In this document: positions 5,677-34,136 of the stretch, one piece after another | Numbering within the stretch: the first letter of the stretch is position 1 | Layout: each line of letters starts with the position of its first letter | From: Candidatus Omnitrophota bacterium | Lineage (GTDB): Bacteria; Omnitrophota; Gorgyraeia; Gygaellales; Profunditerraquicolaceae | DNA length: 41,005 nt | Direction: 5' to 3' | NCBI GenBank assembly: GCA_016212045.1 | Contig: JACRHO010000114.1 | Span: 1 to 41,005, forward strand | Notes under the pieces: model-generated | The model's database searches: none | What the model was told of the DNA's origin: nothing | What the model saw: only the letters and a program-made list of their open reading frames with translations | Made by a program: the position numbers and the translations under genes

Positions 5677-6807
5677 CTATGTTCTCCTTCTGGAGCAAAG
5701 CCGAATAGCGTCAAGCAATACTTCGGCTATACGTCCTTGCTCCTCCATTTTAAGGGAGTTATATAAAGGTAATGTCAGGGAATTCCGAAAGGCGTAAAAT
5801 GCATTTTTAAAAGAATTTAATTTAAACTTAAAATTTTTCTTATAGAAATCTAATGAGGGTATACAATATCCGCCGATTTGCGTTTCTATACCCTTTTTTC
5901 GTAATAAATTTTTTAACTTATCTCTATTAATACTATTGGATAACAATAGACAGTATGTCTGATAAACGTGCCTGTAATCTTTGGGGCTTTGTGGCAATTT
6001 TAAATAACCAAGAATTTCCATTGGCCTAAGGAGCTGGTTATAATTTTGCGCCAAGGCGATCCTTTTCTTAATAGTATTATCAATTCGTTTAAACTGAGAC
6101 ATAAGAATTGCGGCCTGAATATCAGAGAGACGGAAATTATAACCGCAACCGATAAACTTATTATTACGGAGGCCATGATTGCGCAATAATTGTATTTTTT
6201 CGGCTATATGCCCAGAATCTGTAATTACGGCTCCACCTTCTCCGCAGGTAATAAGTTTACGCGGATGAAACGAGAATACTGCAACATCCCCAAAAGAACC
6301 AACCTTTTTTTCCCGGATTCTAGCACCCAAGGCACAGGCTGCATCCTCAATGACAGATAAATTATACCTCTTGGCAAGACGCATAATTTCAGGCAGATCA
6401 GCCGGGAGGCCAAATTCCGAAACAACCATTATTGCCTTCGTCTTCTTTGTGATTAACCTGCTGATGTTTCCCACGTCTATATTAAAAGTATCCAGCTTTA
6501 TATCGCAAAAAACGGGTTCTGCCCCTCCTAATATAATAGAATTAGCCGTTGCAGGAAATGTAAACGCCGGACATATAATCTCATCTTTGCTCTCTAAACC
6601 TAGCGCCTTTACTGAAGCAATCAATCCAGATGTCCCAGAATTAAACATAAAGGCATAACGGATTCTATTATATTGCCGCAACCTGCTTTCTATTAATTTA
6701 ACGTACCTACCTTGCGTAAGCCAGCCACTCCTCAATACCTTAATAGCCACATTTTCTTCTTTTTGCGTAATATCAGGTTTAGATAAAGGAAATTTTATAG
6801 TTCTCAT
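5677..6807 (-). CDS. DegT/DnrJ/EryC1/StrS-family PLP-dependent sugar aminotransferase
   Basis: Motifs: SGWLTQG, IEDAACALG, and the Schiff-base lysine motif FSFHPRKLITCGEGG, then LLRNHG. Confidence 0.85.
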   Translation of the reverse strand: MRTIKFPLSKPDITQKEENVAIKVLRSGWLTQGRYVKLIESRLRQYNRIRYAFMFNSGTSGLIASVKALGLESKDEIICPAFTFPATANSIILGGAEPVFCDIKLDTFNIDVGNISRLITKKTKAIMVVSEFGLPADLPEIMRLAKRYNLSVIEDAACALGARIREKKVGSFGDVAVFSFHPRKLITCGEGGAVITDSGHIAEKIQLLRNHGLRNNKFIGCGYNFRLSDIQAAILMSQFKRIDNTIKKRIALAQNYNQLLRPMEILGYLKLPQSPKDYRHVYQTYCLLLSNSINRDKLKNLLRKKGIETQIGGYCIPSLDFYKKNFKFKLNSFKNAFYAFRNSLTLPLYNSLKMEEQGRIAEVLLDAIRLCSRRRT

Positions 6808-6814
6808 ATAATAT

Positions 6815-8209
6815 TTAGCCGAATAGTAATCTTAATAAAACCTTGGCTCTTTTTAAAAGGCTAATCAAATCCTTTGGGCTCCTTATGGAGATTATCCTCC
6901 TGATGATATAAGATGGGTTTAAATAAAACTCTCTGTACGCCTGGTTAAAATATTGCGTAAGCTCCTTTGAGTTCACATCCCTAAGTTTTATATTGGCTTC
7001 ATTATACCTGCCAAAGTTCTCCCATCCTCCAGCGACAATCTCTAACAATTTTTTCCCTTTGGCCATATCCCAAACCTCTGAGCCAGGCAAAGGAACCAGA
7101 ACAGAAAACTGCGCATAATCAAGTTTTAGTCTTTTTGAGATATCAATAGTTTTTCTGATACTCTCTTTTGTATCATATGGTAATCCTATAATAAAAAGTC
7201 CGATTACCTCCATCCTGACTTCTTTTGCCCATTTAACCGCTCTGGTTATATCCTCTATTGTTTCGTTACGCTTGGCCAAACGTAGCACCGCATTATCCCC
7301 GGATTCAATGCCCAGCTGAATCCTGCGGCAGCCTGAATCCTGCATTATTTTAAGAAGTGGTTTTGTTAAATGGCCTGCGCGGGTAAGGCAATCCCACTCT
7401 AAACGCAGATTCCGTTTAATCAATGCTTCACAAATCTCTGCAGTCCTTTGATTATCTAAAGTGAATGTATCGTCATGAAAGGTAAACCTTTTTATTTTGT
7501 AATCAAGTTTTAATTTTTCTATCTCACCTATTATGTTGCCTACGCTTCTTTTGCGGTAACTTCTCTGATGTATAGTGTGCGCAGCGCAATATGTGCACTG
7601 ATAAGGACAACCCCTTGTGCTGATGAGCCCTACTACTGTGCCTACATGTTCATTTCCGTATTTTTCAATAGGCAAATCCTGATAAAGGGGATAGGGGAAG
7701 ATATCTATATTTTGCGCTAATTGCCGGGCCGGATTTTTTATAATACTGCCTCCTCTTTTATAAAATATTCCCTTAATTTTATCGATGCTCTCTCCGCGCA
7801 CAAGCTCTAGCATCGTAAACTCTCCCTCTCCATAAACGAGGATATCTATGTTACTGTTGGATATTGTCTCTTCTGGCAAAGCCGAGGCATGTATTCCTCC
7901 AATTATAACCTTAATATCGGGATCTATCTTTTTTGCAATTTCTGCAACTTTAAATGCCTCCTTAATCTGGACAGTGGTAGCGGAAAGCCCTATCCAACGC
8001 GGCGATTCCTGTCTAATTATCCTACCTACGTCATTTAAACTATCTGTAGAAAACATTAAATCTACTAACTTTACGCTACAGCCAGCCTCCTTTAAAAAAC
8101 TGGCAATATAGGCTATACCCAAAGGCGGCACGCCAAAATCAAGCGCCTTGATATCTATCCTTCCATAACTTTTGCCATACGGCATGGATAATAGTAGTAC
8201 ATCGCTCAT
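6815..8209 (-). CDS. B12-binding-domain radical SAM enzyme (class B type), copy 1
   Basis: N-terminal Rossmann-like B12-binding region (IGLSATT...VIIGGIHAS...VYGEGE). Cluster motif CPYQCTYC at 7586..7609, verified on the DNA. Downstream IQLGIESG. Confidence 0.85.
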   Translation of the reverse strand: MSDVLLLSMPYGKSYGRIDIKALDFGVPPLGIAYIASFLKEAGCSVKLVDLMFSTDSLNDVGRIIRQESPRWIGLSATTVQIKEAFKVAEIAKKIDPDIKVIIGGIHASALPEETISNSNIDILVYGEGEFTMLELVRGESIDKIKGIFYKRGGSIIKNPARQLAQNIDIFPYPLYQDLPIEKYGNEHVGTVVGLISTRGCPYQCTYCAAHTIHQRSYRKRSVGNIIGEIEKLKLDYKIKRFTFHDDTFTLDNQRTAEICEALIKRNLRLEWDCLTRAGHLTKPLLKIMQDSGCRRIQLGIESGDNAVLRLAKRNETIEDITRAVKWAKEVRMEVIGLFIIGLPYDTKESIRKTIDISKRLKLDYAQFSVLVPLPGSEVWDMAKGKKLLEIVAGGWENFGRYNEANIKLRDVNSKELTQYFNQAYREFYLNPSYIIRRIISIRSPKDLISLLKRAKVLLRLLFG

Positions 8210-8218
8210 ATATTTAAG

Positions 8219-10129
8219 CTATCTTAATTCGTAAATCTTTATCTCTTTTATCCACCAGAAAATTAAAGTGTTTTTAAAAATCCTATCCAGCAAAGGAACG
8301 CGGCTGTCAAACCTTACAACCTCTTTATAATAAGGCGCAATCTCCTTTTCTTCGTTTAATTTCAGTACCCAATGGAAATGCGTGCCTCGCGTACCAGTCT
8401 TATCTATATATTTAATATACTCTGGCGCAATATTATCCTTAGAAGAAGCAATTGATTTAGGTTCATAACTATTAACCAAGATATAATATTGTGGCAATTT
8501 TTCCTTTATCTGGCTAAGATCCGGACTCGTATCATTAACAAATTTATAAAGAAAATAGTTAAAGTACGGGTAATTATTGCTCAGGCCACAATTATCAATA
8601 AAGGTCCCTATACTGGAACCTTCGGGAATATTCCTGTTTATCCACTCCCCGGCTGCCAGTCGGGGAGTGCGCGTAAAGATAAAGGCATAGAAAAGCGAAT
8701 TTAAGAACGTATAAATGGCAACTAAGCCAATCAGTCCAAAAATAATAAACTTATGGATTTTCTTTTGGTTAAATAAAGAATCCATAAAATCAGTGGATAA
8801 TAAAATCAGCAATGGCAGGATAGGAACTAAGGCGTGCAAGGTACCTATTGCAAAACAAGTGCTATAAGTTAAGAAATAATAGCCGAAGATTGAAAAGAGG
8901 ATAATCCTTTTTTTTGCTTGGCGGTTATTAATTATTGCCCAAATAATAGAAATAAGAACTATTGAGCCTAACGGCCATCCTAAGCTATCAAACAAAATGC
9001 GGATATTCCCGAGGTGAATACTCATATCCCAAAAAGAATAAAGCGACCGATAATCCTTAACGTTCCAGATCAGTTCACGGATGAATTCTTTATAGGAAAC
9101 AATGGTATAGGGATTGGTAATAAAGAATATAGCAATACATAGCAAAACCGACCAGACAAAATATTTCAAATCAACAAAAGGAGTTTTAAGTAAATTGGAT
9201 TTTATTTCTTTAAACGGAAAAATCCTGTTGTAGGTTAAACTTAAGAAAATCGGCAGGAGAACCGCTACGGTAGAAAGAAGACTTCCTGCCGCCAGGCCTG
9301 CGCATATACCGGCGTATATAGCATTAATGCGTATCTTATCGTTCTCCAATATATTAAAGCAACAAAATACGGCTAAGAGATACCACATCGCCGCCGATAA
9401 AAGAGGCTTAAGATGTACGCTTTCTACGATAATCAGCGGGCAGAATATAGTAAAAAAAGACGCAAAGATAAAGACCCTGCGGGCATAAAACCTCCTGCAA
9501 ATATAGTATAGTATCAATAGCGAAATCAAAAAGCAGAAGATACCAAAGCCCTTGCCTAAGGCGCTGATCAACAATATATCCTGCGGCTGGTGCATATAAT
9601 ATGCAATATCTTTCACCAGTTTAAAAATTCCGAGTTTAGAGGCAATAAATAAAGAGAAACCTACAGGATAAAGCCAGGCGCCTCCATAGCGGAAATAATG
9701 CGGGTTAAAATCCAGTTTGCTGGGATTAAAGCGATAAAACATCCTAAAGACGTTTTGCTCATCCCAAACAGAAGGCGACATAATGTTATTGCTAAGCCAG
9801 CGCATTTTATTTTTTGAAATATATATTTTTTTTCCTTCTATAATTATGGTATCTTCCTTAAGCATATCTCTGAGGTAATCCTTCGGCGGTAGAAACTGCC
9901 ACATTACATCTTGATAGAGGTTATCATTTACTAATTCCCGATGCCAAGCCTTAAAGTCATCCATTTCTTTTATCAAATAATTTTTTGCCGGTTCGCGAAG
10001 CCCAAAGAAAGATTCCCGGGCAATTTTATTATTGGGCACGCATTCATTTCTTAGGCCGGGTATAACCATCGCTAAGAATGAACCTGATAGAACAAGCGTA
10101 TAGAAAAAAGGTAACCTCTTTAGTTTCAT
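8219..10129 (-). CDS. Large polytopic membrane protein, GT-C (GT39/PMT/ArnT)-like candidate glycosyltransferase with a C-terminal soluble domain
   Basis: 636 aa. N-terminal signal/anchor, then a loop containing VWDEQNVF (similar to the DE motif of PMT-type GT-C enzymes), at least 10 hydrophobic helices and a polar tail of about 140 aa. The functional call is tentative. Confidence 0.45.
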   Translation of the reverse strand: MKLKRLPFFYTLVLSGSFLAMVIPGLRNECVPNNKIARESFFGLREPAKNYLIKEMDDFKAWHRELVNDNLYQDVMWQFLPPKDYLRDMLKEDTIIIEGKKIYISKNKMRWLSNNIMSPSVWDEQNVFRMFYRFNPSKLDFNPHYFRYGGAWLYPVGFSLFIASKLGIFKLVKDIAYYMHQPQDILLISALGKGFGIFCFLISLLILYYICRRFYARRVFIFASFFTIFCPLIIVESVHLKPLLSAAMWYLLAVFCCFNILENDKIRINAIYAGICAGLAAGSLLSTVAVLLPIFLSLTYNRIFPFKEIKSNLLKTPFVDLKYFVWSVLLCIAIFFITNPYTIVSYKEFIRELIWNVKDYRSLYSFWDMSIHLGNIRILFDSLGWPLGSIVLISIIWAIINNRQAKKRIILFSIFGYYFLTYSTCFAIGTLHALVPILPLLILLSTDFMDSLFNQKKIHKFIIFGLIGLVAIYTFLNSLFYAFIFTRTPRLAAGEWINRNIPEGSSIGTFIDNCGLSNNYPYFNYFLYKFVNDTSPDLSQIKEKLPQYYILVNSYEPKSIASSKDNIAPEYIKYIDKTGTRGTHFHWVLKLNEEKEIAPYYKEVVRFDSRVPLLDRIFKNTLIFWWIKEIKIYELR

Positions 10130-10144
10130 GCGCTATTCTCCATT

Positions 10145-11566
10145 TTAGCGAATAGTAAAAACACGAATACCTATTTGAAAGGCAGAAATAATATCTCGCG
10201 GAGAAAAAAATCTTAATTTCCGGAAAATCTGCCGAATCTTATACCTAAGAGGGCGACTCTTAAAGATAACCGCCTTAATGTCTCTTAAGGACAGGGGCGG
10301 AGCCTCCCAACATGGAGTATATGGATCTGTTCCTAACACATTGTAAAGTGGACGGGCATATTGGGTATTCCAAGAAAAATCACGAGGCAAGACCCCTTGC
10401 TGATATGCTAATTTTTCGACCTCTGTGCCGGGATAGATAGCAGTAAATCCATAAGCGGCCCGGACATTAGGATAGGCGGAAAATTTGTTAATTAAACTGA
10501 TAGTTTTACGCAATTCCTGCATCGTCTCTCCAGGAAGACTAACCATAAACATAGCATCAAAGGGAATTCCGACACGAGCGGTGGTTTCAATGGCTTTAGT
10601 GGCCTGGTCGACGGTTATCCCTTTCTTTAATGACTGAAGGGTTTTATCACTGCCCGATTCTATCCCGTACATAATATAACAACAGCCGGCTGACTTCATT
10701 AATGAGAGTAGATCTTTATCTACGGTATTAACGCGGGCTAAAGCTGACCAGCAAATATTCATCTTCCTTTTAAGAATACCTTCACAGATGCTCACAATAT
10801 GGTTACGGTCTATAGTAATAGTATCATCATTAAATAAGAATCCGCGGTAGCCATAAATCTTTTGAAAATAAGCGACCTCATCTAAGAAAAACTCCGGAGA
10901 CCTTTTTCTGAATTTATGCTTCTTTAAGGCGGTTATAGAACAGAAAATACATTTACAAGGACAGCCGCGGCTGCTAATAACTCCCAGTCCAGGAACATTT
11001 TTACTGCCGCGGATATGTATTTTATAGCGCTTTAGATCAAACAAATGATATGCGGGACGCGGAAGGGAATCCAGATCTTCATTCAATGGCCGATCAGGGG
11101 TTTCAATGATTTCGCCATTGTGCCGAAAAAATATCCCATCGATCTTTGAAAGAGGGATATTGGCCTCTACGGCTCTTGCGATCTCAACGATGGTGTTTTC
11201 TCCTTCGCCTTTGACAATACAATCGATCTCAGGAATTTTTGAAAAGGCATCTCTTGCCGTGGGAGGAAAATGTGACCCTCCCGCGACAATAAAGGCTTTA
11301 GTCACCTCTTTAATTATTTTCATGGCCTGGATTGCCTGAAAACGCCCGGCAGTAGTAGCCGTAAAACCAACCATCGAAGGTTTAAGTTCAATAACCTGTT
11401 TAATCATCTGCTGCAGATTATTATTTGATGATACGGGATCAATAATAGATACTTTATAACCACTTTCTTCCAAAAAAGCACCTAAATAAGCCAGCCCGGG
11501 ATGAGGGTGGTAATCCATAGTGATAAAATTTATATCTGCAGGAGCTTCAACTAAAACTATATGCAT
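10145..11566 (-). CDS. B12-binding-domain radical SAM enzyme (class B type), copy 2
   Basis: B12-domain-like N-terminus (VGFTATT...VAGGSHF...VKGEGE). CPCKCIFC at 10940..10963, verified on the DNA. IMYGIESG. AGGGGA Shine-Dalgarno sequence 7 nt upstream of the ATG. Confidence 0.85.
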   Translation of the reverse strand: MHIVLVEAPADINFITMDYHPHPGLAYLGAFLEESGYKVSIIDPVSSNNNLQQMIKQVIELKPSMVGFTATTAGRFQAIQAMKIIKEVTKAFIVAGGSHFPPTARDAFSKIPEIDCIVKGEGENTIVEIARAVEANIPLSKIDGIFFRHNGEIIETPDRPLNEDLDSLPRPAYHLFDLKRYKIHIRGSKNVPGLGVISSRGCPCKCIFCSITALKKHKFRKRSPEFFLDEVAYFQKIYGYRGFLFNDDTITIDRNHIVSICEGILKRKMNICWSALARVNTVDKDLLSLMKSAGCCYIMYGIESGSDKTLQSLKKGITVDQATKAIETTARVGIPFDAMFMVSLPGETMQELRKTISLINKFSAYPNVRAAYGFTAIYPGTEVEKLAYQQGVLPRDFSWNTQYARPLYNVLGTDPYTPCWEAPPLSLRDIKAVIFKSRPLRYKIRQIFRKLRFFSPRDIISAFQIGIRVFTIR

Positions 11567-11623
11567 ATTAAAATCCCCTAACTAATTAAAATACATCTAG
11601 TTATAAATAAAATACTTCCGTCT

Positions 11624-11651
11624 ATTATACTGGTCATCATTAACAAATCAA
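11624..11651 (-). promoter_or_regulatory. Candidate internal sigma70-type promoter (TTGATT-N16-TATAAT) in the largest intergenic gap
   Basis: On the minus strand, TTGATT lies at 11651..11646 and TATAAT at 11629..11624. Both sit in the 88-nt gap upstream of the radical SAM gene that starts at 11566. In AT-rich DNA such matches arise easily by chance. Confidence 0.25.
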
Positions 11652-11654
11652 ACA

Positions 11655-12809: not shown

Positions 12810-12812
12810 TTG

Positions 12813-14321: not shown

Positions 14322-14341
14322 GATGCTATGTTTTTATTATG

Positions 14342-14361: not shown

Positions 14362-14383
14362 GGAAGAAATATTAATGCTATTC

Positions 14384-16835: not shown

Positions 16836-17539
16836 TGTTTTACCTCATATATAATACGCCTTAAAGGCGACTGGATATTTGAACGGGATAAACCGGCATT
16901 TTTAAATGCTGGCAAATTGCTAAGGTAAATATAATAGTAGTTTATATCCACTGCATTATTTTTTGTTTTTACTATTAAATCATTTCCGGATTTAATGGCA
17001 GAAATATCTATCATTGTGGCGCTTTTTGCGTCTTGAAAATAAACGCCATGATATGGATCAAAGATATACCATCTGCCTTTTAATTTTGCAAAAGAAAAGG
17101 GAATTCTTTTCTTTCCATCGATACTATATACCCAAGTAAAAAAAGCAGGTATGCCTGCATAGTTACAAAGCGTCGCAAATACATCGCAAGATTGATCTTT
17201 TGAGCCATAGCCGCGAATGATTATATTTAAAACATGGTCATCTATAAGAGGAAAACCCTCTGGGACTCTCATCACGCTGGCATAAGTCCAATCAAGCAAT
17301 GCCAGCGCCTTCTTTTCGTCGCTATCGTATCCAGATGTAACTTCTTTAGCGATCTTTCTGTAATGATAATCTCGGTCAAAAAACTCTATGATTTTAATAT
17401 AGAGAGGCATGCTTATGGTTCTGATTTCGCCATTAATACCCTGCTTAGATGTTACGGGAAAGAAAATAATAATCGATACTGTTATTAAACTTAGGGCAAC
17501 TATAAAAATATTTCTATATAATTTCATAAATCTAACCAA
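16811..17539 (-). CDS. Membrane-anchored transglutaminase-like (papain-fold) domain protein
   Basis: N-terminal TM helix ([17 protein letters not shown]). Core resemblance to Transglut_core: LLDWTYASV...[23 protein letters not shown]...GRWYIFDP. The Cys (C118) and Asp (D161) positions are present. The usual HAW histidine position reads FSF. Confidence 0.4.
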
Positions 17540-21349: not shown

Positions 21350-22461
21350 TTTTTCGCAAAGAATTTTTTCACCTGTTCAATAACAGTAGTTACGTCAGTT
21401 TGCGTCATATCAAAATATAAAGGCAAAGAAATAATTTCCTGCCAGACCATTTCCGTTACTGGCAGTTTTACCTTAAAGTCCTTAAATAACGGCTGGATAT
21501 GATTCGGAATATAATTAATCCCCGCTCCTACCCCGTTTTTATTAAGGTAATCCAGCAATTTGTCGCGTTTATTATTCTTGACTTTGATAACATAATTAAA
21601 CGGCGCGGTTTCTCTATAGTCTCTATAAAGAAGTTCAATCCCTGACATTCCTTTAAACGCATTATCGTATTCCCTGATGATCTGCCTTTTCTTCTCTAAT
21701 ACCCTATCTAATTTCTTAATCTGCGCAAGACCGATAGCTGCATTTATATTGCTCATATGATACCGAAAACCTGTGGTAACCACTTCGTAAACCCAGCTCC
21801 TCTTGTTTTTATACCTCTGCCATGTATCTTTATCAATGCCTAAAATTCTTTTGCGCATAATCTCAGCGGCTAAATCTTCATCATTTACGACTACCGCCCC
21901 TCCCTCCCCACAGGTTAAATTTTTGATGGGGTCAAAACTAAAACAGGTAATATCTCCAAATGCACCAATTCTTTTTCCTTTGTAGCTGGAACCAAAGGCG
22001 TGAGCAGCGTCTTCCACGATACGGACACTGGAATTCTTTGCTATATCCAATAAGGCCTCCATATCGCAAGGCAACCCCCCATAATGAACTGGCATAATAA
22101 CTTTTGTCCTTGAGGTAATGCGTCTTTTTACGTCTTCTATATCCATATTTAAAGTATTCGGGTCTATATCACAGAAAACAGGCCTTGCCCCAGCAGCAAT
22201 AATAGTTTGAATACTAGCCACAAATGTCAAAGAAGGAACAATAACTTCATCTGTGGTCTCTAAATTTAAAGCATCTAAAGCAATGTGTAGAGCAGAAGTA
22301 CCGGTGTTGACGGCAATGATATATTTTACTCCCAGGTAACCCTTAATGGCATTTTCAAATTCAAAAACCACCGAACCCATACCTAACCAGCCAGAAGCAA
22401 ATACCTTTTTTATTTCAGTTAATTCGTCTTCGCCTATTGACGGCCTTGCTATAGGAATCAT
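21346..22461 (-). CDS. DegT-family PLP aminotransferase, ArnB-like, paralog of 19094..20236
   Basis: Motifs: SGWLGMGSVVFEFE, MPVHYGGLPCDMEAL, VEDAAHAFG, FSFDPIKNLTCGEGG, TWQR, LPLYFDM. Confidence 0.85.
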   Translation of the reverse strand: MIPIARPSIGEDELTEIKKVFASGWLGMGSVVFEFENAIKGYLGVKYIIAVNTGTSALHIALDALNLETTDEVIVPSLTFVASIQTIIAAGARPVFCDIDPNTLNMDIEDVKRRITSRTKVIMPVHYGGLPCDMEALLDIAKNSSVRIVEDAAHAFGSSYKGKRIGAFGDITCFSFDPIKNLTCGEGGAVVVNDEDLAAEIMRKRILGIDKDTWQRYKNKRSWVYEVVTTGFRYHMSNINAAIGLAQIKKLDRVLEKKRQIIREYDNAFKGMSGIELLYRDYRETAPFNYVIKVKNNKRDKLLDYLNKNGVGAGINYIPNHIQPLFKDFKVKLPVTEMVWQEIISLPLYFDMTQTDVTTVIEQVKKFFAKK

Positions 22462-23402: not shown

Positions 23403-24573
23403 ACTTTTCTATGCCCACCTGCAAAGAAAATCTTGACTCGGCAAGCCTACGGCACCTTGATTCTAATCCTTTATCTTCTTTTAATTTCAATAATTCTAAA
23501 AATGTGCGTTTATATTCTTCTTCCTTAAAATCATTAACTATGACTCCTACTTTGTGTTCTAAAATAATCTTTTCTATATCTCCGATCCCTTTACCACTCA
23601 CAACGGGTATGGCGCAACTTAAAAACTCTGCAAATTTGGTAGGAAAACAGGCTCTTTTAGAAAAGCCCAACGAAATAAATATAATGCCTGCATCTACAAG
23701 CAAAAGGTGTTCCGGAATCTTTTCAAAAGAGACCGCCTTGATAGTAATATCTCTTATAGCAATGCCCTTTTGCGAAATTAATCTTAAAATTTCTTCCCTT
23801 GGTGAATGTGTCAAGATTAAAAAATGTACATTAGAATTAACCTGTTTTGCGGCTTTAAAATAATCCAGCATTTCACCCTTCATATACCATGTCTCTAATG
23901 AACCTACATGCGCAAATACGAATTTACCGTCTAGATTATTCTTTCTTTTTAGCGCCATCCTTGTATTTAAGTCTGTTTTAAAGATATCTGTATCTGCGCA
24001 ACAGGGAATGGTAATGATATTACCAGAACCCCTCCTATGATTTCTAACTACAGAGTTTGCATATTCTGTCAATACGACTATTTCATCGGCGTGCTTAATG
24101 AATTCTTTCTCGAATGATTTAGCAACCCGATATATGATACTCTTCTTATCCCAGTGTCCGCATTCTGCTTTCTCATCTGCCCAAAAACCGCGCATATCAA
24201 AAATAAACTTAAGCCTGAATATCCGTTTTAGAAATAATGTAATTAAGCTGGGTACATATCCGCGGGCATGAACTATATCTAATTTTTCTATTTTGATAAG
24301 CATAAAGCTTAGCGTAAACCCCATAGTTACATCAAGAATAGTGGAAAGCACTGCCGGTTTTTTATGATATGGCAAACTGATCCATTTAATATTAAAATCT
24401 TCTAAGTCTTTTTTAAGCTGGCTCTCTTTTGTTTTATCTGTAAAATATTTTTTATCGAAAGTAAGTAAAACGAAACGTATCCCCCTTTTACTTAGTTCTT
24501 TAAGGTAAGGGATAATCTGGGATTGGCCTAACGGCTCAAGCAGCCCATCATAAGATATATATAAGGCTTTCAT
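23344..24573 (-). CDS. GT-B fold glycosyltransferase (GT4)
   Basis: The N-terminus MKALYISYDGLLEPLGQSQIIPYLKELS is typical of a GT4 subgroup. C-terminal FPTKFAEFLSCAIPVVS (E-x7-E-like). Confidence 0.75.
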   Translation of the reverse strand: MKALYISYDGLLEPLGQSQIIPYLKELSKRGIRFVLLTFDKKYFTDKTKESQLKKDLEDFNIKWISLPYHKKPAVLSTILDVTMGFTLSFMLIKIEKLDIVHARGYVPSLITLFLKRIFRLKFIFDMRGFWADEKAECGHWDKKSIIYRVAKSFEKEFIKHADEIVVLTEYANSVVRNHRRGSGNIITIPCCADTDIFKTDLNTRMALKRKNNLDGKFVFAHVGSLETWYMKGEMLDYFKAAKQVNSNVHFLILTHSPREEILRLISQKGIAIRDITIKAVSFEKIPEHLLLVDAGIIFISLGFSKRACFPTKFAEFLSCAIPVVSGKGIGDIEKIILEHKVGVIVNDFKEEEYKRTFLELLKLKEDKGLESRCRRLAESRFSLQVGIEKYGDIYSRLGNAIQHQIHYL

Positions 24574-25976
24574 TTATTAATACTATCCTTTGTTAAATCT
24601 AATCCAGACGGATTGAATACATAGATTAAGCCAATACTGGAAAAAACTAAAACAACTGGGGTAACGATATCTCTAAATCTAAAAATTGTTCCGATATTAG
24701 CTCCAGTGATAGCTAAAGCCGATGCAATTATAAAAAAATATAGAAATAAAATTGAAGCCTGTCTTAATCTATATCTAACTGATATTAGAGCCCCTATAGC
24801 AAAGAAGGGCATTAAGAAATACCAAAGAAGCATTTGCGGCATAGTTAAAAATATGGATTTACTATGTATGAACCGCCAAGGAAATGGTTCTAAAAGCATA
24901 TGCGTCCAGGCCTTACTAAGCACCGTTAAAAATTCAAGATATCCCATATTTAATTTAACGGGCTGCTCAGTGGACAAGAACTGGTAATATATGCCACCCT
25001 CTGAAATTGTTCCCTGATAAAAAACAATGGCCTTCTGGAGCATGCTGGAAAAAAGTAGATATAGATTCTCTTTAAATATCAAAATAAAAAATAGCGAAGC
25101 TAACGACGATACCGCGATGAAAAAAAACCGTTTCTTTCTATACAGATTCAATATAAATACTAATAAGAAATATAATAATACTATGATGACGTTTAGATAA
25201 ATAAACTCTATATAAGCCCTACGTATAGAAAACTGGGCTAAAATCGACAGCGATATCAAAATCAGATAATAAAATCGCTTTGTGCTATGAAATTTGATAG
25301 CTGACCAAATCATAAGATAGGCCAGAAATATAAGGCTTGTTTCTTTAAGATTGGTTATAGACCAAAAAAACATAGATGGCCAAAAAGCGACTAATATACT
25401 CGAGAGCACGGCAGGCTTTTTGCCAAAAATGTTTCTCACAATGGAATATATCAGTATTGCAATCAAGGCTCCCAGAAGGCAATTGATAAATCTTGATGCA
25501 ATGGGGCTGTAACCGAATAGAGTAAAGAATGTAGCCAATAAATAAATGTATCCTGTTGCACCATAAGGATTAGTAACCATGGCCTCTATTGTAATTGGAT
25601 GCATGGGTTTATTTAACCAATACATACTATTAAACAAGCCGCGCAGGGTATAATATCCGCTGTCATCAACGAGGTAGGGCGTAGAATAATCGGGATAGCC
25701 CATATGCGCATAATTTAATATCTTTCCGATATATATAGCAATAAACATAGACAATAAACTAACAATTATTCTTGAGCTTAAGGCTATGCTGAAAAGTAAC
25801 GAAAGAAACCTGCGTTCATCATTTTCGCCAATGCGGTTTATAAAAAATAATACTAACAAAGCGACAGAAAATATAAATACACTACCCGGAGAAAAAAATA
25901 GCAATAAACCCAAAATAAAACCCAGCAATATAACCATAGTATTCTTATTTTGAGAATATGTAATTGAGTTAATCAT
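24570..25976 (-). CDS. Polytopic membrane protein (GT-C-like glycosyltransferase or Wzy-like polymerase candidate)
   Basis: 468 aa, at least 10 hydrophobic helices, early acidic loop PYLVDDSGYY. No soluble-domain motifs recognised. Confidence 0.45.
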   Translation of the reverse strand: MINSITYSQNKNTMVILLGFILGLLLFFSPGSVFIFSVALLVLFFINRIGENDERRFLSLLFSIALSSRIIVSLLSMFIAIYIGKILNYAHMGYPDYSTPYLVDDSGYYTLRGLFNSMYWLNKPMHPITIEAMVTNPYGATGYIYLLATFFTLFGYSPIASRFINCLLGALIAILIYSIVRNIFGKKPAVLSSILVAFWPSMFFWSITNLKETSLIFLAYLMIWSAIKFHSTKRFYYLILISLSILAQFSIRRAYIEFIYLNVIIVLLYFLLVFILNLYRKKRFFFIAVSSLASLFFILIFKENLYLLFSSMLQKAIVFYQGTISEGGIYYQFLSTEQPVKLNMGYLEFLTVLSKAWTHMLLEPFPWRFIHSKSIFLTMPQMLLWYFLMPFFAIGALISVRYRLRQASILFLYFFIIASALAITGANIGTIFRFRDIVTPVVLVFSSIGLIYVFNPSGLDLTKDSINK

Positions 25977-27006
25977 TATAAACTAATTTTCTTGCGTTAA
26001 TTCCGAACTTCTTAAATAAATCTAGGAATTCCTTATTATTTATTTTTCTTTTGTGCATTAAACCGCGGCGCTTAGTGAACAATCCGGGGATTTTTATCAA
26101 AAAAGAAAAGTAAGCACTAAAAAGAATGATAATTGTTGCGGGAAGCGAAATCTTGTTGATAAACTTCTTAGCGGCGCCCTTATTTTTAAAGACCGACACT
26201 AGTTGCAGTGTATATCTTAGGCCTGTATAAAAAATAGTGCTCATTAAAAAAGAAACGGGATAACATTTAAATATAATACATAGCCTATTTCTTTCCGTAA
26301 AATATAATTTAATGCTAGAGTACTGCCCTCCTGTCTGCGATATCTTATGGTAAATTATGGCCTTAGGCACATAGATGGCCTTCCAATTCATCATACGGGC
26401 CCTTAAACCTAAATCGGTGTCTTCAACGTAGGCAAAGAAGTCTGAATCAAAAAGCCCAACCTCATTTAGCATCTTCCTTTTATATAAAGCGCCGCAACCC
26501 GGAGGCGATATCGTCTCATCTATGGTCTCGTATTGCCCAATATCTATTTCGAACCTTCCCCTTGCCTGGCTTAAGCCATCCTTATAAATAAGATGTCCCG
26601 TTCCGTCGATAATGCGCGGATTATAATAATTTAAGAGCTTTGCAGCGCACATGCCAATTTTGTCTTCGGTTCTGGCGGCAAGAATAAGTTGCTCAATACA
26701 TTCCCTATCTGTTTTGGTGTCGTTATTGACGAGTATGATAAATTCTCCTGAGGACTCTTCTATCCCTATATTATTCCCTTGGGCAAAGCCAGTATTATTA
26801 TTATTTTTTATCAGTTTTATCCGGCTGGCGTATTTTTCTTTAACTAACTTGCAGGAGTTATCGCTAGAGCCGTTGTCTACTAGAATTAACTCAATATCCC
26901 TGTAAGTTTGCACCAGAAGAGAATCTAAACATTCTTCTAATAAATGCGCTCCATTATAATTAACTACCACCACCGAAGCTAGGCCTTTTCTGGCATCTTT
27001 AATCAT
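25969..27006 (-). CDS. GT2 glycosyltransferase with C-terminal membrane helices
   Basis: Motifs: ASVVVVNYNG, ILVDNGSSD, ILVNNDT (DxD), YVEDTDLGLR. I chose the start at ATG 27006 (MIKDARKGLASVVVVNYNG, 8-nt overlap). The ORF track extends to 27042, which would give a 44-nt overlap. Confidence 0.75.
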   Translation of the reverse strand: MIKDARKGLASVVVVNYNGAHLLEECLDSLLVQTYRDIELILVDNGSSDNSCKLVKEKYASRIKLIKNNNNTGFAQGNNIGIEESSGEFIILVNNDTKTDRECIEQLILAARTEDKIGMCAAKLLNYYNPRIIDGTGHLIYKDGLSQARGRFEIDIGQYETIDETISPPGCGALYKRKMLNEVGLFDSDFFAYVEDTDLGLRARMMNWKAIYVPKAIIYHKISQTGGQYSSIKLYFTERNRLCIIFKCYPVSFLMSTIFYTGLRYTLQLVSVFKNKGAAKKFINKISLPATIIILFSAYFSFLIKIPGLFTKRRGLMHKRKINNKEFLDLFKKFGINARKLVYND

Positions 27007-28279
27007 ATATAGAATCTCTGGATAATCTAACCAAGGGAACACAGGCGAATATAATCAGATACGGTAATGCCGGAATACTTAAACGGGTCTCGGAAATAAA
27101 AACCATATGCAATAAAGTGAAATAAAATAATACCGAGTAAATGGGTAACAGTTTTTTCCAATTCTTGCGGCATAATACCATACCAATAATGCCGAATAAA
27201 AATATACCTACTGAAAAGGCCAGTACAAATAATTTCCAAAACAAAACGAATCTATATTCTTTGATTATATTAATATCTTTAAGAAAACTCGAGAAAGGTA
27301 TGTTCGTTCTATACAATCCGCTGTAGCTGCCTACCCATAGTTTTATTATTTTCTTTGGGAAAAAACTAATATAGCGAAAAGGATGATCTTTGATATTATT
27401 TATGGCCATCTTGAATAAAATCCTCTGGCGTTCGGCATGAAATTCCCTGTTATCCATTCCTTTTTCTAGCGAGTAGATATATATACTCTTCGTAAATTTT
27501 GATAATTCATCTTTGAGCTTAGGATTATCCTGATCGGCATTGCCTTCGCTAAAACTACTTACCCATAATACCCCTGCTCCACCGTCTATAAGAAACGGAT
27601 TAAAAGAACGGCCGTATAATATATAATTTCTTATATTGAATAATGCCCCTAAAATAATAATCGTAGATATAAACACTAATGTTGCCTTAAAAGCATATAA
27701 TTTACTTCTATAAAAGATAAATAGGCCTAAAATAATGAGTAGGGGTAATAATACCGGTGTTAATCTAAATTGCATACTTATCGTTAAAAAGACAGCTGAG
27801 ATAAAATAATATTTTAGCGATGACTTTTTCATAGCCATGACTAGAAAAAATACAGCACAGGCAAATAAAAACGTAAACATGCTCTCTGATATAAGATGGC
27901 TGGATACAATAAAAAGGCCCGGATGAAAAACTGAAAATATGGCTGAATAAAACCCTACCCGTTGATTAAATAAATCTTTGCCTATTCTATAAACTATAAT
28001 GCAGGTTAAGGACATAAAAATTGCCTGTATTATTTTTGCTGCCAAAACTGAATGCCCAAATATCAGATAGACTAGCGCTAAAAATGCAACAAATCCCTGT
28101 TTAAACCCCTGCTCAATATCCTCAAGGCCTGCGGCTGTATGTGTAATTTTCTGCGTCAGGTATACCGCTACCCTATCATACATAATCGCATCTTGCTCTA
28201 GGGGAATTTTTAAAGCAAAGATAACTATTAACTGCAATATGAAAGACAATAAAAATATAAAAATAATCCGCAGTTTCAT
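26999..28279 (-). CDS. GT-C fold membrane glycosyltransferase (GT39/GT83, ArnT/PMT_2-like)
   Basis: N-terminal TM helix followed by the loop PLEQDAIMYDRVAVYL, then at least 10 helices. This architecture is typical of PMT_2-like proteins. I chose the start at ATG 28279 (MKLRIIFIF), which forms an ATGA overlap with the upstream stop (checked on the DNA). The ORF track extends to 28330. Confidence 0.6.
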   Translation of the reverse strand: MKLRIIFIFLLSFILQLIVIFALKIPLEQDAIMYDRVAVYLTQKITHTAAGLEDIEQGFKQGFVAFLALVYLIFGHSVLAAKIIQAIFMSLTCIIVYRIGKDLFNQRVGFYSAIFSVFHPGLFIVSSHLISESMFTFLFACAVFFLVMAMKKSSLKYYFISAVFLTISMQFRLTPVLLPLLIILGLFIFYRSKLYAFKATLVFISTIIILGALFNIRNYILYGRSFNPFLIDGGAGVLWVSSFSEGNADQDNPKLKDELSKFTKSIYIYSLEKGMDNREFHAERQRILFKMAINNIKDHPFRYISFFPKKIIKLWVGSYSGLYRTNIPFSSFLKDINIIKEYRFVLFWKLFVLAFSVGIFLFGIIGMVLCRKNWKKLLPIYSVLFYFTLLHMVFISETRLSIPALPYLIIFACVPLVRLSRDSIYD

Positions 28280-28959
28280 TCTATTCTGCATCTTGCTATA
28301 GCTAATAACGAATGTATACCGGCTGTCCAATGCAGTTTTTTGCCTTCTTTTTTATTTCTGGGTGCATAACTAATCGGCACCTCCAATATCTTTATGTCTT
28401 TTTTAAGGATGCGCGCGGTGAATTCAGCATCAAAGTCAAAGCCATTACACATAAATTCCATATTTTTTATTACATTGGTCCTGAAAACTTTATAACAGGT
28501 CTCTATATCTGTAAGCTGAGTCCTAAATAAAAAATTCGCTGTATGAGTCAAGAATCTATTCCCTAGATAATTTATGAGGCTAGCCTTTCCTTTCCCCCAA
28601 AAAAACCGAGAACCATAAACTACGTCGCTTCTTTCTTCTAAAATCGGCCTTAATAATAGCGGATAATCAAAAGGGTCTACCTCTAAGTCGGCATCCTGGA
28701 TTATTATGATATCGCCTGTGGCCTGAGCAAAACCCAGCCTTAAGGCATAGCCCTTGCCCTTTCTTTTTGTTTCAAAAATTAGCTTCGTGTTTTCGTCTTC
28801 CATACTGCTTAAGATATCCCTTGTTCCGTCAGTTGAACACCCATCTATAATGATTATTTCTTTTTGCAGGGGTAAATTTACCTGGCGAATTTTTTCCAAA
28901 ACCCGCAATAAATTATCTTTCTCATTATAAACCGCTATAACTATAGAGAGTTTATACAT
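28276..28959 (-). CDS. GT2 glycosyltransferase, polyprenyl-phosphate sugar synthase type (DPM1-like)
   Basis: Motifs: LSIVIAVYNEKDNL, IIIDGCSTDGT, IIQDADLE, VVYGSRF. Confidence 0.8.
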   Translation of the reverse strand: MYKLSIVIAVYNEKDNLLRVLEKIRQVNLPLQKEIIIIDGCSTDGTRDILSSMEDENTKLIFETKRKGKGYALRLGFAQATGDIIIIQDADLEVDPFDYPLLLRPILEERSDVVYGSRFFWGKGKASLINYLGNRFLTHTANFLFRTQLTDIETCYKVFRTNVIKNMEFMCNGFDFDAEFTARILKKDIKILEVPISYAPRNKKEGKKLHWTAGIHSLLAIARCRIE

Positions 28960-28960
28960 C

Positions 28961-30172
28961 TTAGTTATTTTTTAATAAAAAAACTTTTATGAGATTAAGC
29001 ACATAATCTAACTCTTTCTGACCCATTTCCTGATGGATGCCGATATGTAAGCCGTTATCACCTATATATTCCGCATTAGGAAAGTCGCCGAGTTTGTAAC
29101 CCAGATATTTAAAGCCAGGGCACTGTGTAGGCATGGATAAAAATAGACTTCGGCTATCAATGCCGTGCTTTTCCAGAAAATATACAAATTTATCCCTGGT
29201 AAATTTAGCTTCTTTCCCAAGAATTATCGCAAAGGCATGGGGACCGATTTGTTCATTCGGTTCTTCTCTAATGGTATAAAGATAGGGTTGAAATTCTCTG
29301 AATTTTTCCATTAAATAAGTAAGATTTTTACGCCGTTTCTTTAATATGGCAGGGTAGATATCCAAATTGCCTAAGCCAACAGCAGCCTCCAGCTCATTCA
29401 TTTTGCTGGAAAAGCCGATGCGCTCAAAGATAAATCTAATATCCCGGTTATCGCCATATTTAAATCTTTTAGCGCAATAGCTAGAAGCAGTATTTAATAC
29501 ACACGTATTGCATTTGCAGGCCCGGCCATGCGCCCTTAAAGACCTAAGAATTTCTGCAAAATCTGACCTATCTGTAACAACTATGCCTCCCTCTCCTGTT
29601 GTAATCATATGCGCCACATATAAACTAAATGCCGCCATATCCGCTAATCTACCTACGGCTTTACCTTTATATATTGCACCGTATGCTTCTGCTGCATCTT
29701 CAATTACAAAGAGCTTATATTTTTTTGCAATCCTATTTATCGTATCCATATCAGCGGGTTTGCCCATAAGATGCACAGGCATTATAGCCCGCGTTTTTTG
29801 AGTAATTACCTCTTCTATCCTTGAAGCATCTATATTCAGTGTCTGCCTTTCAACGTCTACAAAAACCGGCCTAAATCCTGCCTGCAAAACCGCATTGCCT
29901 GTGGCTACAAAAGACAAAGCCGGGATAATAATCTCATCTTGCCTCTTGGCGCCGAAATCATAAAGCACAGCCAAGGCCAAAGCATCTGCATCCGTACCAG
30001 AACTTAAAGCCACTGCCTCTGTTGTACCAATAAGGCGGGCAAATTTCTCCTCAAATTCCCTGACATACTTACCTGCTGAAATACGATTCTTCGCCAAGGC
30101 CTGAAGAATAAGCCTTTCTGCTTTTTTAGTAACCGACACTGTCCCAAAATTTATTCTAATTTTATTTTTCAT
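28961..30172 (-). CDS. DegT-fold PLP/PMP-dependent nucleotide-sugar 3-dehydratase (ColD / E1-RfbH-DdhC-like), His replacing the Schiff-base Lys
   Basis: The motif FSLYVAHMITTGEGG has His188 (codon cat at 29611..29609, checked on the DNA) where the three paralogs have Lys. SLRAHGR and the tail GLHIGIHQEM..ELDYV match my memory of ColD. The Cys cluster CKCNTC-x9-CAKRF at 29474..29518 resembles the Fe-S motif region of E1/RfbH. Confidence 0.7.
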   Translation of the reverse strand: MKNKIRINFGTVSVTKKAERLILQALAKNRISAGKYVREFEEKFARLIGTTEAVALSSGTDADALALAVLYDFGAKRQDEIIIPALSFVATGNAVLQAGFRPVFVDVERQTLNIDASRIEEVITQKTRAIMPVHLMGKPADMDTINRIAKKYKLFVIEDAAEAYGAIYKGKAVGRLADMAAFSLYVAHMITTGEGGIVVTDRSDFAEILRSLRAHGRACKCNTCVLNTASSYCAKRFKYGDNRDIRFIFERIGFSSKMNELEAAVGLGNLDIYPAILKKRRKNLTYLMEKFREFQPYLYTIREEPNEQIGPHAFAIILGKEAKFTRDKFVYFLEKHGIDSRSLFLSMPTQCPGFKYLGYKLGDFPNAEYIGDNGLHIGIHQEMGQKELDYVLNLIKVFLLKNN

Positions 30173-31710
30173 CTTATCATTTTATAATTGCGGTAGAAGA
30201 TTCTTTTTCTTAATATGCGCGCAATGTCAAGCTCAGGGGCAAAGGTATAGTGTTTATTCCTAAGTTTAAATCTCTCAAAGGCGCTGATCGGTTTAAAGAA
30301 TAATTTTAAAATAAAGCGCATAAAATTATTTTCTACTCCTTCTATGGCATTGTGCGCACTATTACCCAAAATACTCATATAGGTAATATTACCGATCTTT
30401 TTCCTATCAGAATTGTTAAACCAGGGCATCTTGCGCCCTTCTCTATCATAATCATCAAAAACCCAATTAATCCATTCAGGTAAACTCTGCGGCGCTCTTA
30501 ATCCCATCTTCACAGATAAGTCATAAAGCGGCGTTCCGGGAAAAGCAGTATATCCTCCTATCACTTCAAATTGTGCCTGCGGATTATCTTTTTTGAGCTT
30601 GACAAAAAGATCTATGGTTTGGTGGATATCATCGAATGTCTCAGTAGGAAACCCAATCATTAAAGCGAATGCCGGAATTATACCCAGGCGCCTTGCCTTA
30701 AGGTTAGCCTTTAAGGTATCTTCCCTGTAAATTCCCTTCTGCATCAAATCCAGAATTCTATTTGACCCTGATTCTGCACCAAACTTTAAGGTGTTGGCTC
30801 CGCTTCTTTTTAGCATAATAATCTGTTCATCGCTAGAAAGGTTAAAAACGTCAACGCGGGTGCCTGAGGTATACCACTTTATTTTATATCTAGAATTTAC
30901 TATGCCTTCGCATATTTGATAGGTTCTATTACGGTCAATATAAAACTCGTCATCCCTTATCCAGATGCCATCAAGATTAAATCTTTTTACAGGCTCCAAT
31001 ATCCGCTCCTCCAAAGATTTCTTTACTGACATTGCCCGCCATTTTCGTTGCCGCAAGGTAGCGCTAGAGCAGAATCCGCATTGGAAAGGACACCCCCTGC
31101 TTGTCTGCCCAATATCTAAACTGCGCTTAATTTTCTTAATATAGAAATCTCTGTGGATATAACTTTCAACATCAATCAAATGCCAAGGAACAGGTAAAAG
31201 GGTTTCCACGTCAAGTAGTGGACGACTGGCGGTCAGTATAGTTTTTTCGGCTTCCTTAAAGGCTATCCCTTTCACATCGTTTAATCGCCTCATCCCTCGA
31301 AAGGCCTCAACTAATTCCATAAAGGTTATGTCTCCTTCGCCGATACAAACTACATCTACATATTCACTTTCTAAGGTTTGCTCAGGTACTGTAGAAGGAT
31401 GCGCACCTCCCCAGACAATCGGAATCTCGCCATTAGAGGCATTTCTTACTACCTTGGCTATCTCTAAGGCAAAATAAATTTGGGTTCCCGTCATACTTGA
31501 GATCCCTACGCAGATAGGTTTTCTCTGCAGATACTCCTGCAAATGCCTAAGCCAAAAAGGGTCTACCCTCTGATCGATTATCTTTACCTGATAACTCTTC
31601 TGTTCTAACGGCGCTGCCAAGGTTAAAACGGCATGAGGAGGAGCAACGGTTGCCCCGAAATCTATACCGGTCTTGGGATAAACCAATATAACATCTGCGT
31701 CTTGCCTCAT
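30169..31710 (-). CDS. B12-binding-domain radical SAM enzyme (class B type), copy 4
   Basis: VWGGAHPS...VCIGEGD. CPFQCGFC at 31069..31092, verified on the DNA. LKFGAESGS. Its stop forms an ATGA overlap with the dehydratase start. Confidence 0.85.
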   Translation of the reverse strand: MRQDADVILVYPKTGIDFGATVAPPHAVLTLAAPLEQKSYQVKIIDQRVDPFWLRHLQEYLQRKPICVGISSMTGTQIYFALEIAKVVRNASNGEIPIVWGGAHPSTVPEQTLESEYVDVVCIGEGDITFMELVEAFRGMRRLNDVKGIAFKEAEKTILTASRPLLDVETLLPVPWHLIDVESYIHRDFYIKKIKRSLDIGQTSRGCPFQCGFCSSATLRQRKWRAMSVKKSLEERILEPVKRFNLDGIWIRDDEFYIDRNRTYQICEGIVNSRYKIKWYTSGTRVDVFNLSSDEQIIMLKRSGANTLKFGAESGSNRILDLMQKGIYREDTLKANLKARRLGIIPAFALMIGFPTETFDDIHQTIDLFVKLKKDNPQAQFEVIGGYTAFPGTPLYDLSVKMGLRAPQSLPEWINWVFDDYDREGRKMPWFNNSDRKKIGNITYMSILGNSAHNAIEGVENNFMRFILKLFFKPISAFERFKLRNKHYTFAPELDIARILRKRIFYRNYKMIR

Positions 31711-34115: not shown

Positions 34116-34136
34116 CTTTGACTCCTTTGTAATTTA

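Follow-up and report, generated by a model that had tools for sequence, protein, structure and literature searches.

Candidate sugar-tailoring class-B radical SAM families in an Omnitrophota envelope-glycan locus and the limited conservation of their DegT neighbours

The 41,005-bp contig JACRHO010000114.1 of a Candidatus Omnitrophota bacterium (assembly GCA_016212045.1), analysed over its complete length and called the window below, carries four genes for B12-binding (class-B) radical S-adenosylmethionine (SAM) proteins (rSAM1 to rSAM4) and four genes for DegT-fold enzymes (DegT_A to DegT_D). Three of the former directly abut one of the latter, which raises the question of whether such neighbours work as two-gene cassettes: the initial annotation proposed that each radical SAM enzyme and its pyridoxal phosphate (PLP) enzyme partner jointly make an amino or deoxy sugar that is C-methylated or rearranged. 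This proposal was partly supported by comparison with related loci: of the three pairs, rSAM3-DegT_B alone bears it out. The usual partners of rSAM1 and rSAM4 are a small family 2 glycosyltransferase (GT2), often with a GT-C glycosyltransferase (PMT_2), short-chain dehydrogenases/reductases (SDRs), class-I methyltransferases and further class-B paralogs. The reading that we favour, with moderate confidence, is that the four proteins represent new sugar-tailoring class-B families in envelope-glycan biosynthesis, acting at a nucleotide-linked or polyprenyl-phosphate-linked stage.

All 36 substantial open reading frames (ORFs) of the window lie on the minus strand (the strand of every window coordinate given below), and the Pfam and NCBIfam matches describe a single continuous glycan-biosynthesis locus. 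The four class-B genes were recovered as initially annotated: all four products exceed the gathering scores of both domain models, with 48-87 bits for PF02310 (B12-binding; threshold 32.1) and 55-96 bits for PF04055 (Radical_SAM; threshold 29.5), and the [4Fe-4S] cluster motif CxxxCxxC occurs once per protein (residues 201-208), translated from exactly the positions previously reported. rSAM1 (6815..8209, 464 aa; CPYQCTYC at 7586-7609) scored 86.6 bits for B12-binding and 95.5 bits for Radical_SAM. rSAM2 (10145..11566, 473 aa; CPCKCIFC at 10940-10963) has no DegT neighbour and is followed by the gene for a protein with 9 transmembrane (TM) segments (8219-10129). rSAM3 (17532..19097, 521 aa; CPFSCSYC at 18453-18476) is the most divergent paralog, and rSAM4 (30169..31710, 513 aa; CPFQCGFC at 31069-31092) belongs to a highly conserved family. 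rSAM3 and rSAM4 had been described as the closest pair, but rSAM3 is the outlier: it scored 87-100 bits against the other three, and the remaining pairs gave 204 bits (rSAM1-rSAM2), 158 bits (rSAM2-rSAM4) and 151 bits (rSAM1-rSAM4).

The proteins were then compared with curated families. The best NCBIfam matches were HpnJ for rSAM1, BchE for rSAM2 and the MJ_1487 family for rSAM3 (102 bits, cut-off 251). Scores for HpnJ (TIGR03471, cut-off 577.6 bits) were 228 for rSAM1, 180 for rSAM2, 114 for rSAM4 and 97 for rSAM3; those for BchE (TIGR02026, cut-off 481 bits) were 195 for rSAM2, 179 for rSAM1, 140 for rSAM4 and 63 for rSAM3. Membership of either family was ruled out, as these scores fall short of the curated cut-offs. 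The AprD4 family gave 43-109 bits across the four proteins (cut-off 500), and against HpnR, PhpK, BzaD, MgmA and the ladderane-type lipid radical SAM family of NCBIfam, as against AprD4, all four were far under the curated cut-offs. Because no curated cut-off was reached, the proteins stand outside BchE, HpnJ, HpnR, PhpK and the other characterised non-sugar families, placement in which had been named in advance as evidence against the proposal; to judge by sequence, they are members of uncharacterised class-B families. The known class-B radical SAM proteins run into the tens of thousands, and for most of their sequence groups a function has yet to be assigned (PMC12931638). In the literature, no description was found of a class-B or B12 radical SAM protein in O-antigen, capsule, polysaccharide or nucleotide-sugar contexts, or in Omnitrophota.

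By sequence, the closest solved proteins are AprD4, MgmA (9ccb), OxsB, TokK, TsrM and CysS. An AlphaFold2 model of rSAM4 (pLDDT 91.2) matched OxsB, TsrM, MgmA, AprD4, CysS and TokK (TM ~0.6-0.7, E 1e-14 to 1e-20) with no clear preference among these folds, and neither sequence nor fold comparison with solved structures separated methylase, dehydratase and rearrangement chemistry. According to a 2026 review, non-methylating class-B enzymes have no structural features that separate them from methylases, and AprD4-type proteins lie in the class-B sequence network with a Rossmann domain present and cobalamin not bound (PMC12931638); the chemistry of the window proteins is therefore not readable from sequence or fold. 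On family priors, cobalamin-dependent C-methylation would be the most likely chemistry, and C-methylation or rearrangement of a sugar, as first proposed, seems plausible.

The three junctions on which the cassette proposal was built are as originally described: 7 nt separate the end of rSAM1 from the beginning of DegT_A, the DegT_B stop and the rSAM3 start share an ATGA overlap, and so do the rSAM4 stop and the DegT_D start. For a random order of 36 genes (4 radical SAM and 4 DegT), the probability of at least three radical SAM genes beside a DegT gene is 0.025, for a pattern that was chosen post hoc; the adjacency is suggestive. It would be explained by an obligate cassette, in which a radical SAM enzyme and the abutting DegT enzyme act consecutively on a nucleoside diphosphate (NDP)-linked 4-keto or amino sugar, the product being an amino or deoxy sugar with an added C-methyl group or a rearranged skeleton. 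DesI/DesII is one precedent for such a pair. Another is the passage from GenS2 to GenD1 (PMC4340712).

Conservation of the adjacency, set beforehand as the refuting test, was assessed for rSAM1, rSAM3 and rSAM4 in 3-4 independent ortholog loci per family. A DegT neighbour was present in none of the four rSAM1 ortholog loci (L010, L016, L017, L105; DegT absent or at least 3 genes off) and in none of the four rSAM4 ortholog loci (L002, L003, L012, L104), and this largely refutes the cassette for both. Close orthologs of rSAM3 adjoin a DegT gene in two loci (L015, L101), with the adjacency broken in the third (L102), and two further homologs of 48-51% identity have no DegT neighbour (L011, L103). 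The pair is kept in L015 and L101 within a syntenic block of ~70%-identical relatives, so its conservation there may reflect shared descent. Of the repeated cassette, then, the rSAM3-DegT_B pair stands (two of three close orthologs), and the rSAM1 and rSAM4 pairs do not.

A broader census was made for context. A scan of genome contigs with rSAM4 alone returned only 8 loci, 2 of them with true orthologs. The census set came from a metagenome-contig scan with an alignment of the rSAM3 family; that scan returned only distant paralogs (at most 38% identity), so its use here is for general neighbourhood counts and not for testing orthologs. As blastp/tblastn searches with the window proteins as probes undercount divergent families, they were replaced by a Pfam scan of all neighbours, which covered 144 same-strand immediate neighbours of 148 class-B radical SAM genes from about 100 related loci. 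GT2 genes were counted 16 times (11 upstream, 5 downstream), other radical SAM genes 13 times (6 upstream, 7 downstream), class-I methyltransferases about 10 times (7 upstream, 3 downstream), SDRs 8 times (5 upstream, 3 downstream) and PMT_2 genes 7 times (3 upstream, 4 downstream). DegT genes were counted twice among the 144 (2 upstream, 0 downstream), and both belong to rSAM3 orthologs. An earlier count had found a class-B paralog directly adjoining 34 of 137 census genes. With DegT so rare among immediate neighbours, an obligate cassette is rather unlikely; we take the contacts in the window to be largely a by-product of the way in which sugar-pathway modules are packed together as a mosaic. 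In glycan clusters of this mosaic kind, a tight junction seen in one locus says little about whether two genes work together.

A further point against the cassette is that conventional partners are available in the window for every DegT gene. DegT_A (5677..6807; PF01041 E 6.5e-103; best NCBIfam match PseC, 293 bits, under cut-off), DegT_B (19094..20236; E 1.8e-118) and DegT_C (21346..22461; E 4.1e-116; 46% identical to DegT_B, no radical SAM neighbour) are predicted aminotransferases that carry the catalytic, PLP-binding Lys in an FSFxxxK motif. DegT_A pairs conventionally with the SDR and acetyltransferase genes of the block downstream (3493..5676; Pfam, NCBIfam), made up of a 4,6-dehydratase-like SDR (4714-5676), a hexapeptide acetyltransferase (4188-4724) and an ArnC-like GT2 (3493-4191). 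For DegT_B, the partner appears to be the textbook one, a fusion of a GFO/IDH/MocA oxidoreductase with a hexapeptide N-acetyltransferase (15201..16835; Pfam; in NCBIfam, UDP-GlcNAc 3-dehydrogenase with 172 bits and a NeuD/PglB/VioB-type acetyltransferase); the two presumably form a WbpB/WbpE/WbpD-type route to a 3-acetamido sugar.

DegT_D (28961..30172; PF01041 E 4.2e-96) has His in place of the PLP-binding Lys (FSLYVAHMITTGEGG). It aligns full-length to the 3-dehydrases E1 (3bcx), including the AH and GRxCxC motifs, and ColD, in agreement with its earlier description as a His-variant dehydratase. Its best NCBIfam match is RfbH (273 bits, cut-off 423), and GRxCxC, a C-x-C motif resembling an Fe-S site, is aligned to the Fe-S region of E1. 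Identity with ColD was set aside; E1 is favoured because ColD lacks the aligned CxC motif, and DegT_D is thus a predicted E1/RfbH-type, pyridoxamine phosphate-dependent 3-dehydrase. It shares the Lys-to-His change with E1/RfbH/DdhC (CDP-6-deoxy-L-threo-D-glycero-4-hexulose 3-dehydrase) and ColD; in contrast to the E1/RfbH system, the window has no E3-type reductase gene and the surroundings look GDP-linked rather than CDP-linked. Together with the upstream genes for a GDP-sugar 4,6-dehydratase and reductase, DegT_D would suit a route to a 3,6-dideoxy sugar.

The junction of rSAM4 that is conserved elsewhere lies on its other side and was absent from the initial annotation: the gene for a small soluble GT2 (31707..32387, 226 aa) runs into the rSAM4 start with an ATGA overlap. 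The closest relatives of this GT2 in the PDB are ArnC and dolichol-phosphate-mannose synthase (DPMS), and its best NCBIfam matches are AglJ and dolichol-phosphate (Dol-P) hexose transferase. A second small GT2 (28276..28959, 227 aa) matched AglJ, Dol-P hexose transferase and ArnC best, and ArnC is also the best match of the GT2 at 3493-4191. The rSAM4 family comprises more than 120 protein clusters of 59-76% identity in Omnitrophota, Planctomycetia, Patescibacteria and Desulfobacterales, and the order small GT2, SDR, rSAM4 ortholog, second class-B gene was found in all four independent ortholog loci. The upstream GT2 of L002 and L003 shares 58-62% identity with its window counterpart (31707-32387); in L012 and L104, genes with a Pfam GT2 match occupy the same position. 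A conserved polytopic membrane protein of 760-790 aa follows in three of the four loci (L012:11099-13462, L002:11573-13876, L003:13030-15309; 10-13 TM segments, 44-56% mutual identity). Its 787-aa member gave no Pfam or NCBIfam match at E = 1 and no similarity to a 636-aa membrane protein of the window (8219..10129, between rSAM2 and rSAM1, ~9 predicted TM segments), for which likewise no Pfam or NCBIfam match was obtained even at E = 1. The membrane proteins beside class-B genes may be novel GT-C-like transferases or polymerases.

The SDR immediately upstream of rSAM4 in all four ortholog loci brings in a different chemistry, in which some or all of the radical SAM proteins would be cobalamin-independent dehydratases or deaminases of the AprD4 or DesII kind that deoxygenate a sugar diol or amino-alcohol, the adjacent SDR reducing the ketone. 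In apramycin biosynthesis, AprD3 reduces the ketone produced by AprD4. Radical SAM enzymes of sugars are paired with an SDR reductase (AprD3) in the C3' deoxygenation of apramycin and with a DegT aminotransferase (DesI) in the C4 deoxygenation of desosamine. AprD4 has the same two-domain architecture as the window proteins; it is the top PDB sequence match of rSAM1 (93 bits) and the second of rSAM4, and is among the top fold matches. That AprD4-type proteins lie inside the class-B network without binding cobalamin (PMC12931638) also agrees with such an elimination. Against it stand the AprD4 family scores, all well under the cut-off, the solid B12-binding scores of the window proteins, the cobalamin binders OxsB and TsrM, which match the rSAM4 model at least equally well, and the arrangement in the window itself, where no SDR lies between GT2 and rSAM4. 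As points of difference between the systems, AprD4 binds no cobalamin, and DesII has no N-terminal Rossmann domain. Elimination followed by SDR reduction is a serious rival, especially for rSAM4, although overall we consider it unlikely.

Orthologs of rSAM1 (60-70% identity) show the same association with GT2. A gene for a GT2 of 232-236 aa lies directly upstream in three of four loci (L010, L016, L105), with an ATGA overlap in L016; by tblastn, the L010 and L016 proteins share 42-46% identity with the GT2 that the window encodes at 28276-28959, and PMT or PMT_2 genes lie downstream of the rSAM1 orthologs in the same two loci. The arrangement resembles the HpnI/HpnK/HpnJ system for the hopanoid cyclitol ether, in which HpnI, a GT2, attaches a sugar to a lipid before a radical SAM enzyme of class B reworks that sugar in its lipid-linked state: rSAM1 finds its best NCBIfam match in HpnJ, aligned over nearly the full length, the GT2 adjacency is conserved for rSAM1 and rSAM4 orthologs, and L016 also has a polysaccharide deacetylase. 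The differences are that rSAM1 is not a member of HpnJ (228 against 577.6 bits), that no hopanoid genes are present, and that the lipid here would be polyprenyl phosphate, with GT-C transferases following. The polyprenyl-linked intermediate, which the initial annotation had offered as an option, fits the context of rSAM1 and rSAM4 better.

Under the sugar-tailoring reading, the four radical SAM proteins would tailor sugars in the cytoplasm as products of a very large locus for envelope glycans. SDR, DegT and acyltransferase enzymes would produce a nucleotide sugar and modify it, and a small GT2 resembling ArnC, DPMS or AglJ would load the sugar onto polyprenyl phosphate. rSAM1 and rSAM4 would modify an unactivated sugar carbon at the cytoplasmic face, just before or after this loading, and the product would be flipped and the sugar transferred to its acceptor by a GT-C enzyme. 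The placement of rSAM1 and rSAM4 at or around lipid-carrier loading follows from their conserved GT2 and GT-C neighbourhood and from the resemblance of the GT2s to ArnC, DPMS and AglJ. All gene types of the ArnB/ArnC/ArnD/ArnT pathway of lipid A aminoarabinose are present in the window. That pathway uses an aminotransferase of the DegT fold, a step at the N-acyl group, a small GT2 that loads undecaprenyl phosphate, lipid-linked tailoring and a GT-C enzyme of the PMT_2 family. In contrast to that pathway, the lipid-linked tailoring would be done by radical SAM enzymes instead of the ArnD deformylase, and the window GT2s lack the membrane helices of ArnC and are under its cut-off.

The setting of rSAM3 is different. 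Its close orthologs are ~70% identical; in L015 and L101 they are directly preceded by DegT_B orthologs (75% identical), and in L102 a methyltransferase gene, not a DegT gene, overlaps the start. A 64%-identical ortholog of the 15201..16835 fusion follows rSAM3 in L015, so that the context of DegT_B and UDP-GlcNAc-3-dehydrogenase/acetyltransferase is kept in L015 and partly in L101. rSAM3 most plausibly would modify a 3-amino sugar delivered by the 3-dehydrogenase, DegT_B and N-acetyltransferase block, by analogy with the route from GenD2, GenS2 and GenN to GenD1. In gentamicin biosynthesis, GenD2 (a GFO-type oxidoreductase), GenS2 (an aminotransferase) and GenN (an N-methyltransferase) act with GenD1 and GenK, which are cobalamin-dependent radical SAM C-methyltransferases of sugars (PMC4340712). 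The same enzyme set surrounds rSAM3 (GFO/IDH/MocA oxidoreductase, DegT-fold aminotransferase, N-modifying enzyme, class-B radical SAM), with the same logic of oxidation, transamination, N-modification and radical C-modification next to the amine (PMC4340712); the likeness is one of gene context. Because its setting mirrors the GenD2/GenS2/GenN/GenD1 group, the original pairing is most defensible for rSAM3-DegT_B. Unlike the gentamicin genes, those of the window come from an uncultured diderm and form a locus for cell-envelope glycans instead of an antibiotic cluster; the rSAM3 substrate is likely a UDP- or lipid-linked sugar rather than a pseudotrisaccharide, and the amine is probably acetylated (by the fused hexapeptide transferase) rather than methylated.

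Further genes were recorded around rSAM3 and its relatives. The rSAM3 stop is overlapped by the gene for a transglutaminase-core-like protein with an N-terminal TM segment (16811..17539; weak Pfam Transglut_core match); a homolog follows rSAM3 in L101 (2864-3442), and another, 46% identical, lies at the far end of L015 (10062-10400) and not beside rSAM3. In L103, an 847-aa protein (P0171, 8001-10544) is a natural fusion of an rSAM3-like class-B radical SAM (48% identity) to a C-terminal GT2 domain, and the locus also has further GT2s, a DUF2304 gene, another class-B gene and a DegT gene two genes downstream of the fusion. Tandem arrays of 5-7 class-B paralogs occur in metagenome contigs (L095:3534-10643, L064:1416-10047, L021:714-10023, L089), often with a GT2 and a class-I methyltransferase in front.

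Such arrays, together with the rSAM1 and rSAM3 homologs that lie outside glycan loci (L017 and L011, respectively), are compatible with non-sugar substrates: the enzymes might act on membrane lipids or on the lipid carrier, in the manner of HpnP/HpnR and the ladderane-type radical SAMs, or else on a peptide or protein, and the glycan genes would then be no more than neighbours. Among the best NCBIfam matches are HpnJ, the rSAM_ladder_B12 lipid family, the glutamine methylase of methyl-coenzyme M reductase (MCR) and methyltransferases of ribosomally synthesised and post-translationally modified peptides (RiPPs). The C-terminal 50 residues of all four proteins are strongly basic and aromatic (+7 to +11), which is weakly compatible with binding to a membrane surface. 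All scores for such families are nevertheless far under the cut-offs; GT2, GT-C, SDR, methyltransferase and DegT genes are consistently enriched around the orthologs, a natural fusion to GT2 exists, and no precursor-peptide or lipid-synthesis genes were found in the window by Pfam. Non-sugar substrates are a less likely rival than elimination of the AprD4 or DesII type, and we regard them as improbable.

Several observations weigh against the sugar-tailoring reading itself. The small GT2s are under every NCBIfam cut-off (99-115 bits against 325 for AglJ; 51-53 bits against 529 for ArnC), so that the term polyprenyl-phosphate sugar synthase describes a resemblance and not a demonstrated membership. 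rSAM1 has no GT2 neighbour in the window, where it is flanked by the 9-TM protein and DegT_A, and its L017 ortholog is an orphan outside any glycan context. This 62%-identical ortholog (L017-L020, the P0251 loci) lies near a protein with an HZS_alpha domain and a polysaccharide lyase, without glycosyltransferase neighbours; because of it, the rSAM1 family is not always found in glycan loci. The 51%-identical rSAM3 homolog of L011 is likewise outside a glycan context. Domain content, fold, locus context and the conservation or loss of neighbours were observed directly; the substrate, product and cobalamin binding of the enzymes, the choice between a lipid- and a nucleotide-linked stage, and methylation rest on inference, and methylating and non-methylating class-B enzymes are indistinguishable by sequence or structure (PMC12931638). 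The ortholog samples are also small (3-4 independent loci per family), and the broad census was built on distant paralogs (at most 38% identity).

The locus as a whole includes genes for four GT2, two PMT_2 (GT-C) and three GT1/GT4 transferases, a Wzx-like flippase, two class-I methyltransferases, a CN-hydrolase, a WbuX-type amidotransferase, and a hexapeptide acetyltransferase separate from the GFO/IDH/MocA-hexapeptide fusion. The transferases at 24570..28330 (PMT_2 at 26999-28330, GT2 at 25969-27042, PMT_2 at 24570-25976; Pfam; 8-9 predicted TM segments) are predicted users of lipid-linked sugar donors. Upstream, a nucleotide-sugar supply block (32396..40845; Pfam, NCBIfam) encodes a ManC/HddC-like nucleotidyltransferase, an HddA-like GHMP kinase, five SDRs and a thiamine pyrophosphate (TPP)-dependent pair resembling the alpha and beta subunits of pyruvate dehydrogenase E1 (PDH-E1). 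The five SDRs are of the epimerase/dehydratase/reductase type, one GMD-like and one GDP-fucose-synthase-like (452 bits, cut-off 500). The kinase and the adjacent nucleotidyltransferase (32396-34115) matched HddA (heptose-7-P kinase) and mannose-1-P/heptose-1-P guanylyltransferases best, both below cut-offs, and may supply GDP-heptose or another GDP-sugar. In a 264-aa SDR-like ORF (34137-34931) the Epimerase profile is matched only from position 57 onward, so the N-terminal NAD-binding part is apparently absent; the ORF may be a truncated or degenerate paralog.

The TPP pair (37900-39926) is set among the GDP-sugar SDR genes. Split transketolase/E1-like pairs and an adh_short gene recur in rSAM4-ortholog loci (L012:1-1209, L104:4621-6427, L002:4410-5195 and 19327-20109), the split genes lying upstream in L012 and L104. 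This pair suggests that a sugar receives two carbons in a TPP-dependent reaction, which would branch it or extend its chain. At the other end of the window (1520-3506), a WbuX-type N-acetyl-sugar amidotransferase (218.8 bits, over the cut-off of 203.2) adjoins the CN-hydrolase/nitrilase-like gene and hints at an acetamidino or otherwise amidated sugar. The ORF of a ~516-aa polytopic membrane protein (1-1548) is cut by the left contig end, so the locus continues beyond the window on that side.

The established sugar chemistry of class-B enzymes stems from antibiotic and hopanoid pathways. On our rating, the present families extend it: radical SAM sugar tailoring would have moved from secondary metabolism and hopanoids into the lipid-carrier-based surface glycosylation of uncultured phyla. 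A more far-reaching version, which we put forward only tentatively and hold to be doubtful, is an undescribed route in which class-B enzymes C-alkylate or rearrange monosaccharides on polyprenyl phosphate, between an ArnC-like GT2 and an ArnT-like GT-C enzyme; it would be widespread in Omnitrophota, bacteria of the candidate phyla radiation (CPR), DPANN archaea and neighbouring phyla, would yield extracytoplasmic glycans with new carbon skeletons, and would be represented here by four such enzymes in parallel modules. The locus and its relatives point to whole radical SAM families that serve the glycans of the cell envelope and are repeatedly wired to lipid-carrier glycosyltransferases, in phyla whose record is almost entirely metagenomic. 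If confirmed, this would predict unusual C-modified sugars on the cell surfaces of Omnitrophota, CPR and DPANN organisms, would provide defined gene sets (GT2, radical SAM and GT-C) for heterologous reconstitution, and would offer new substrates for radical SAM enzymology.

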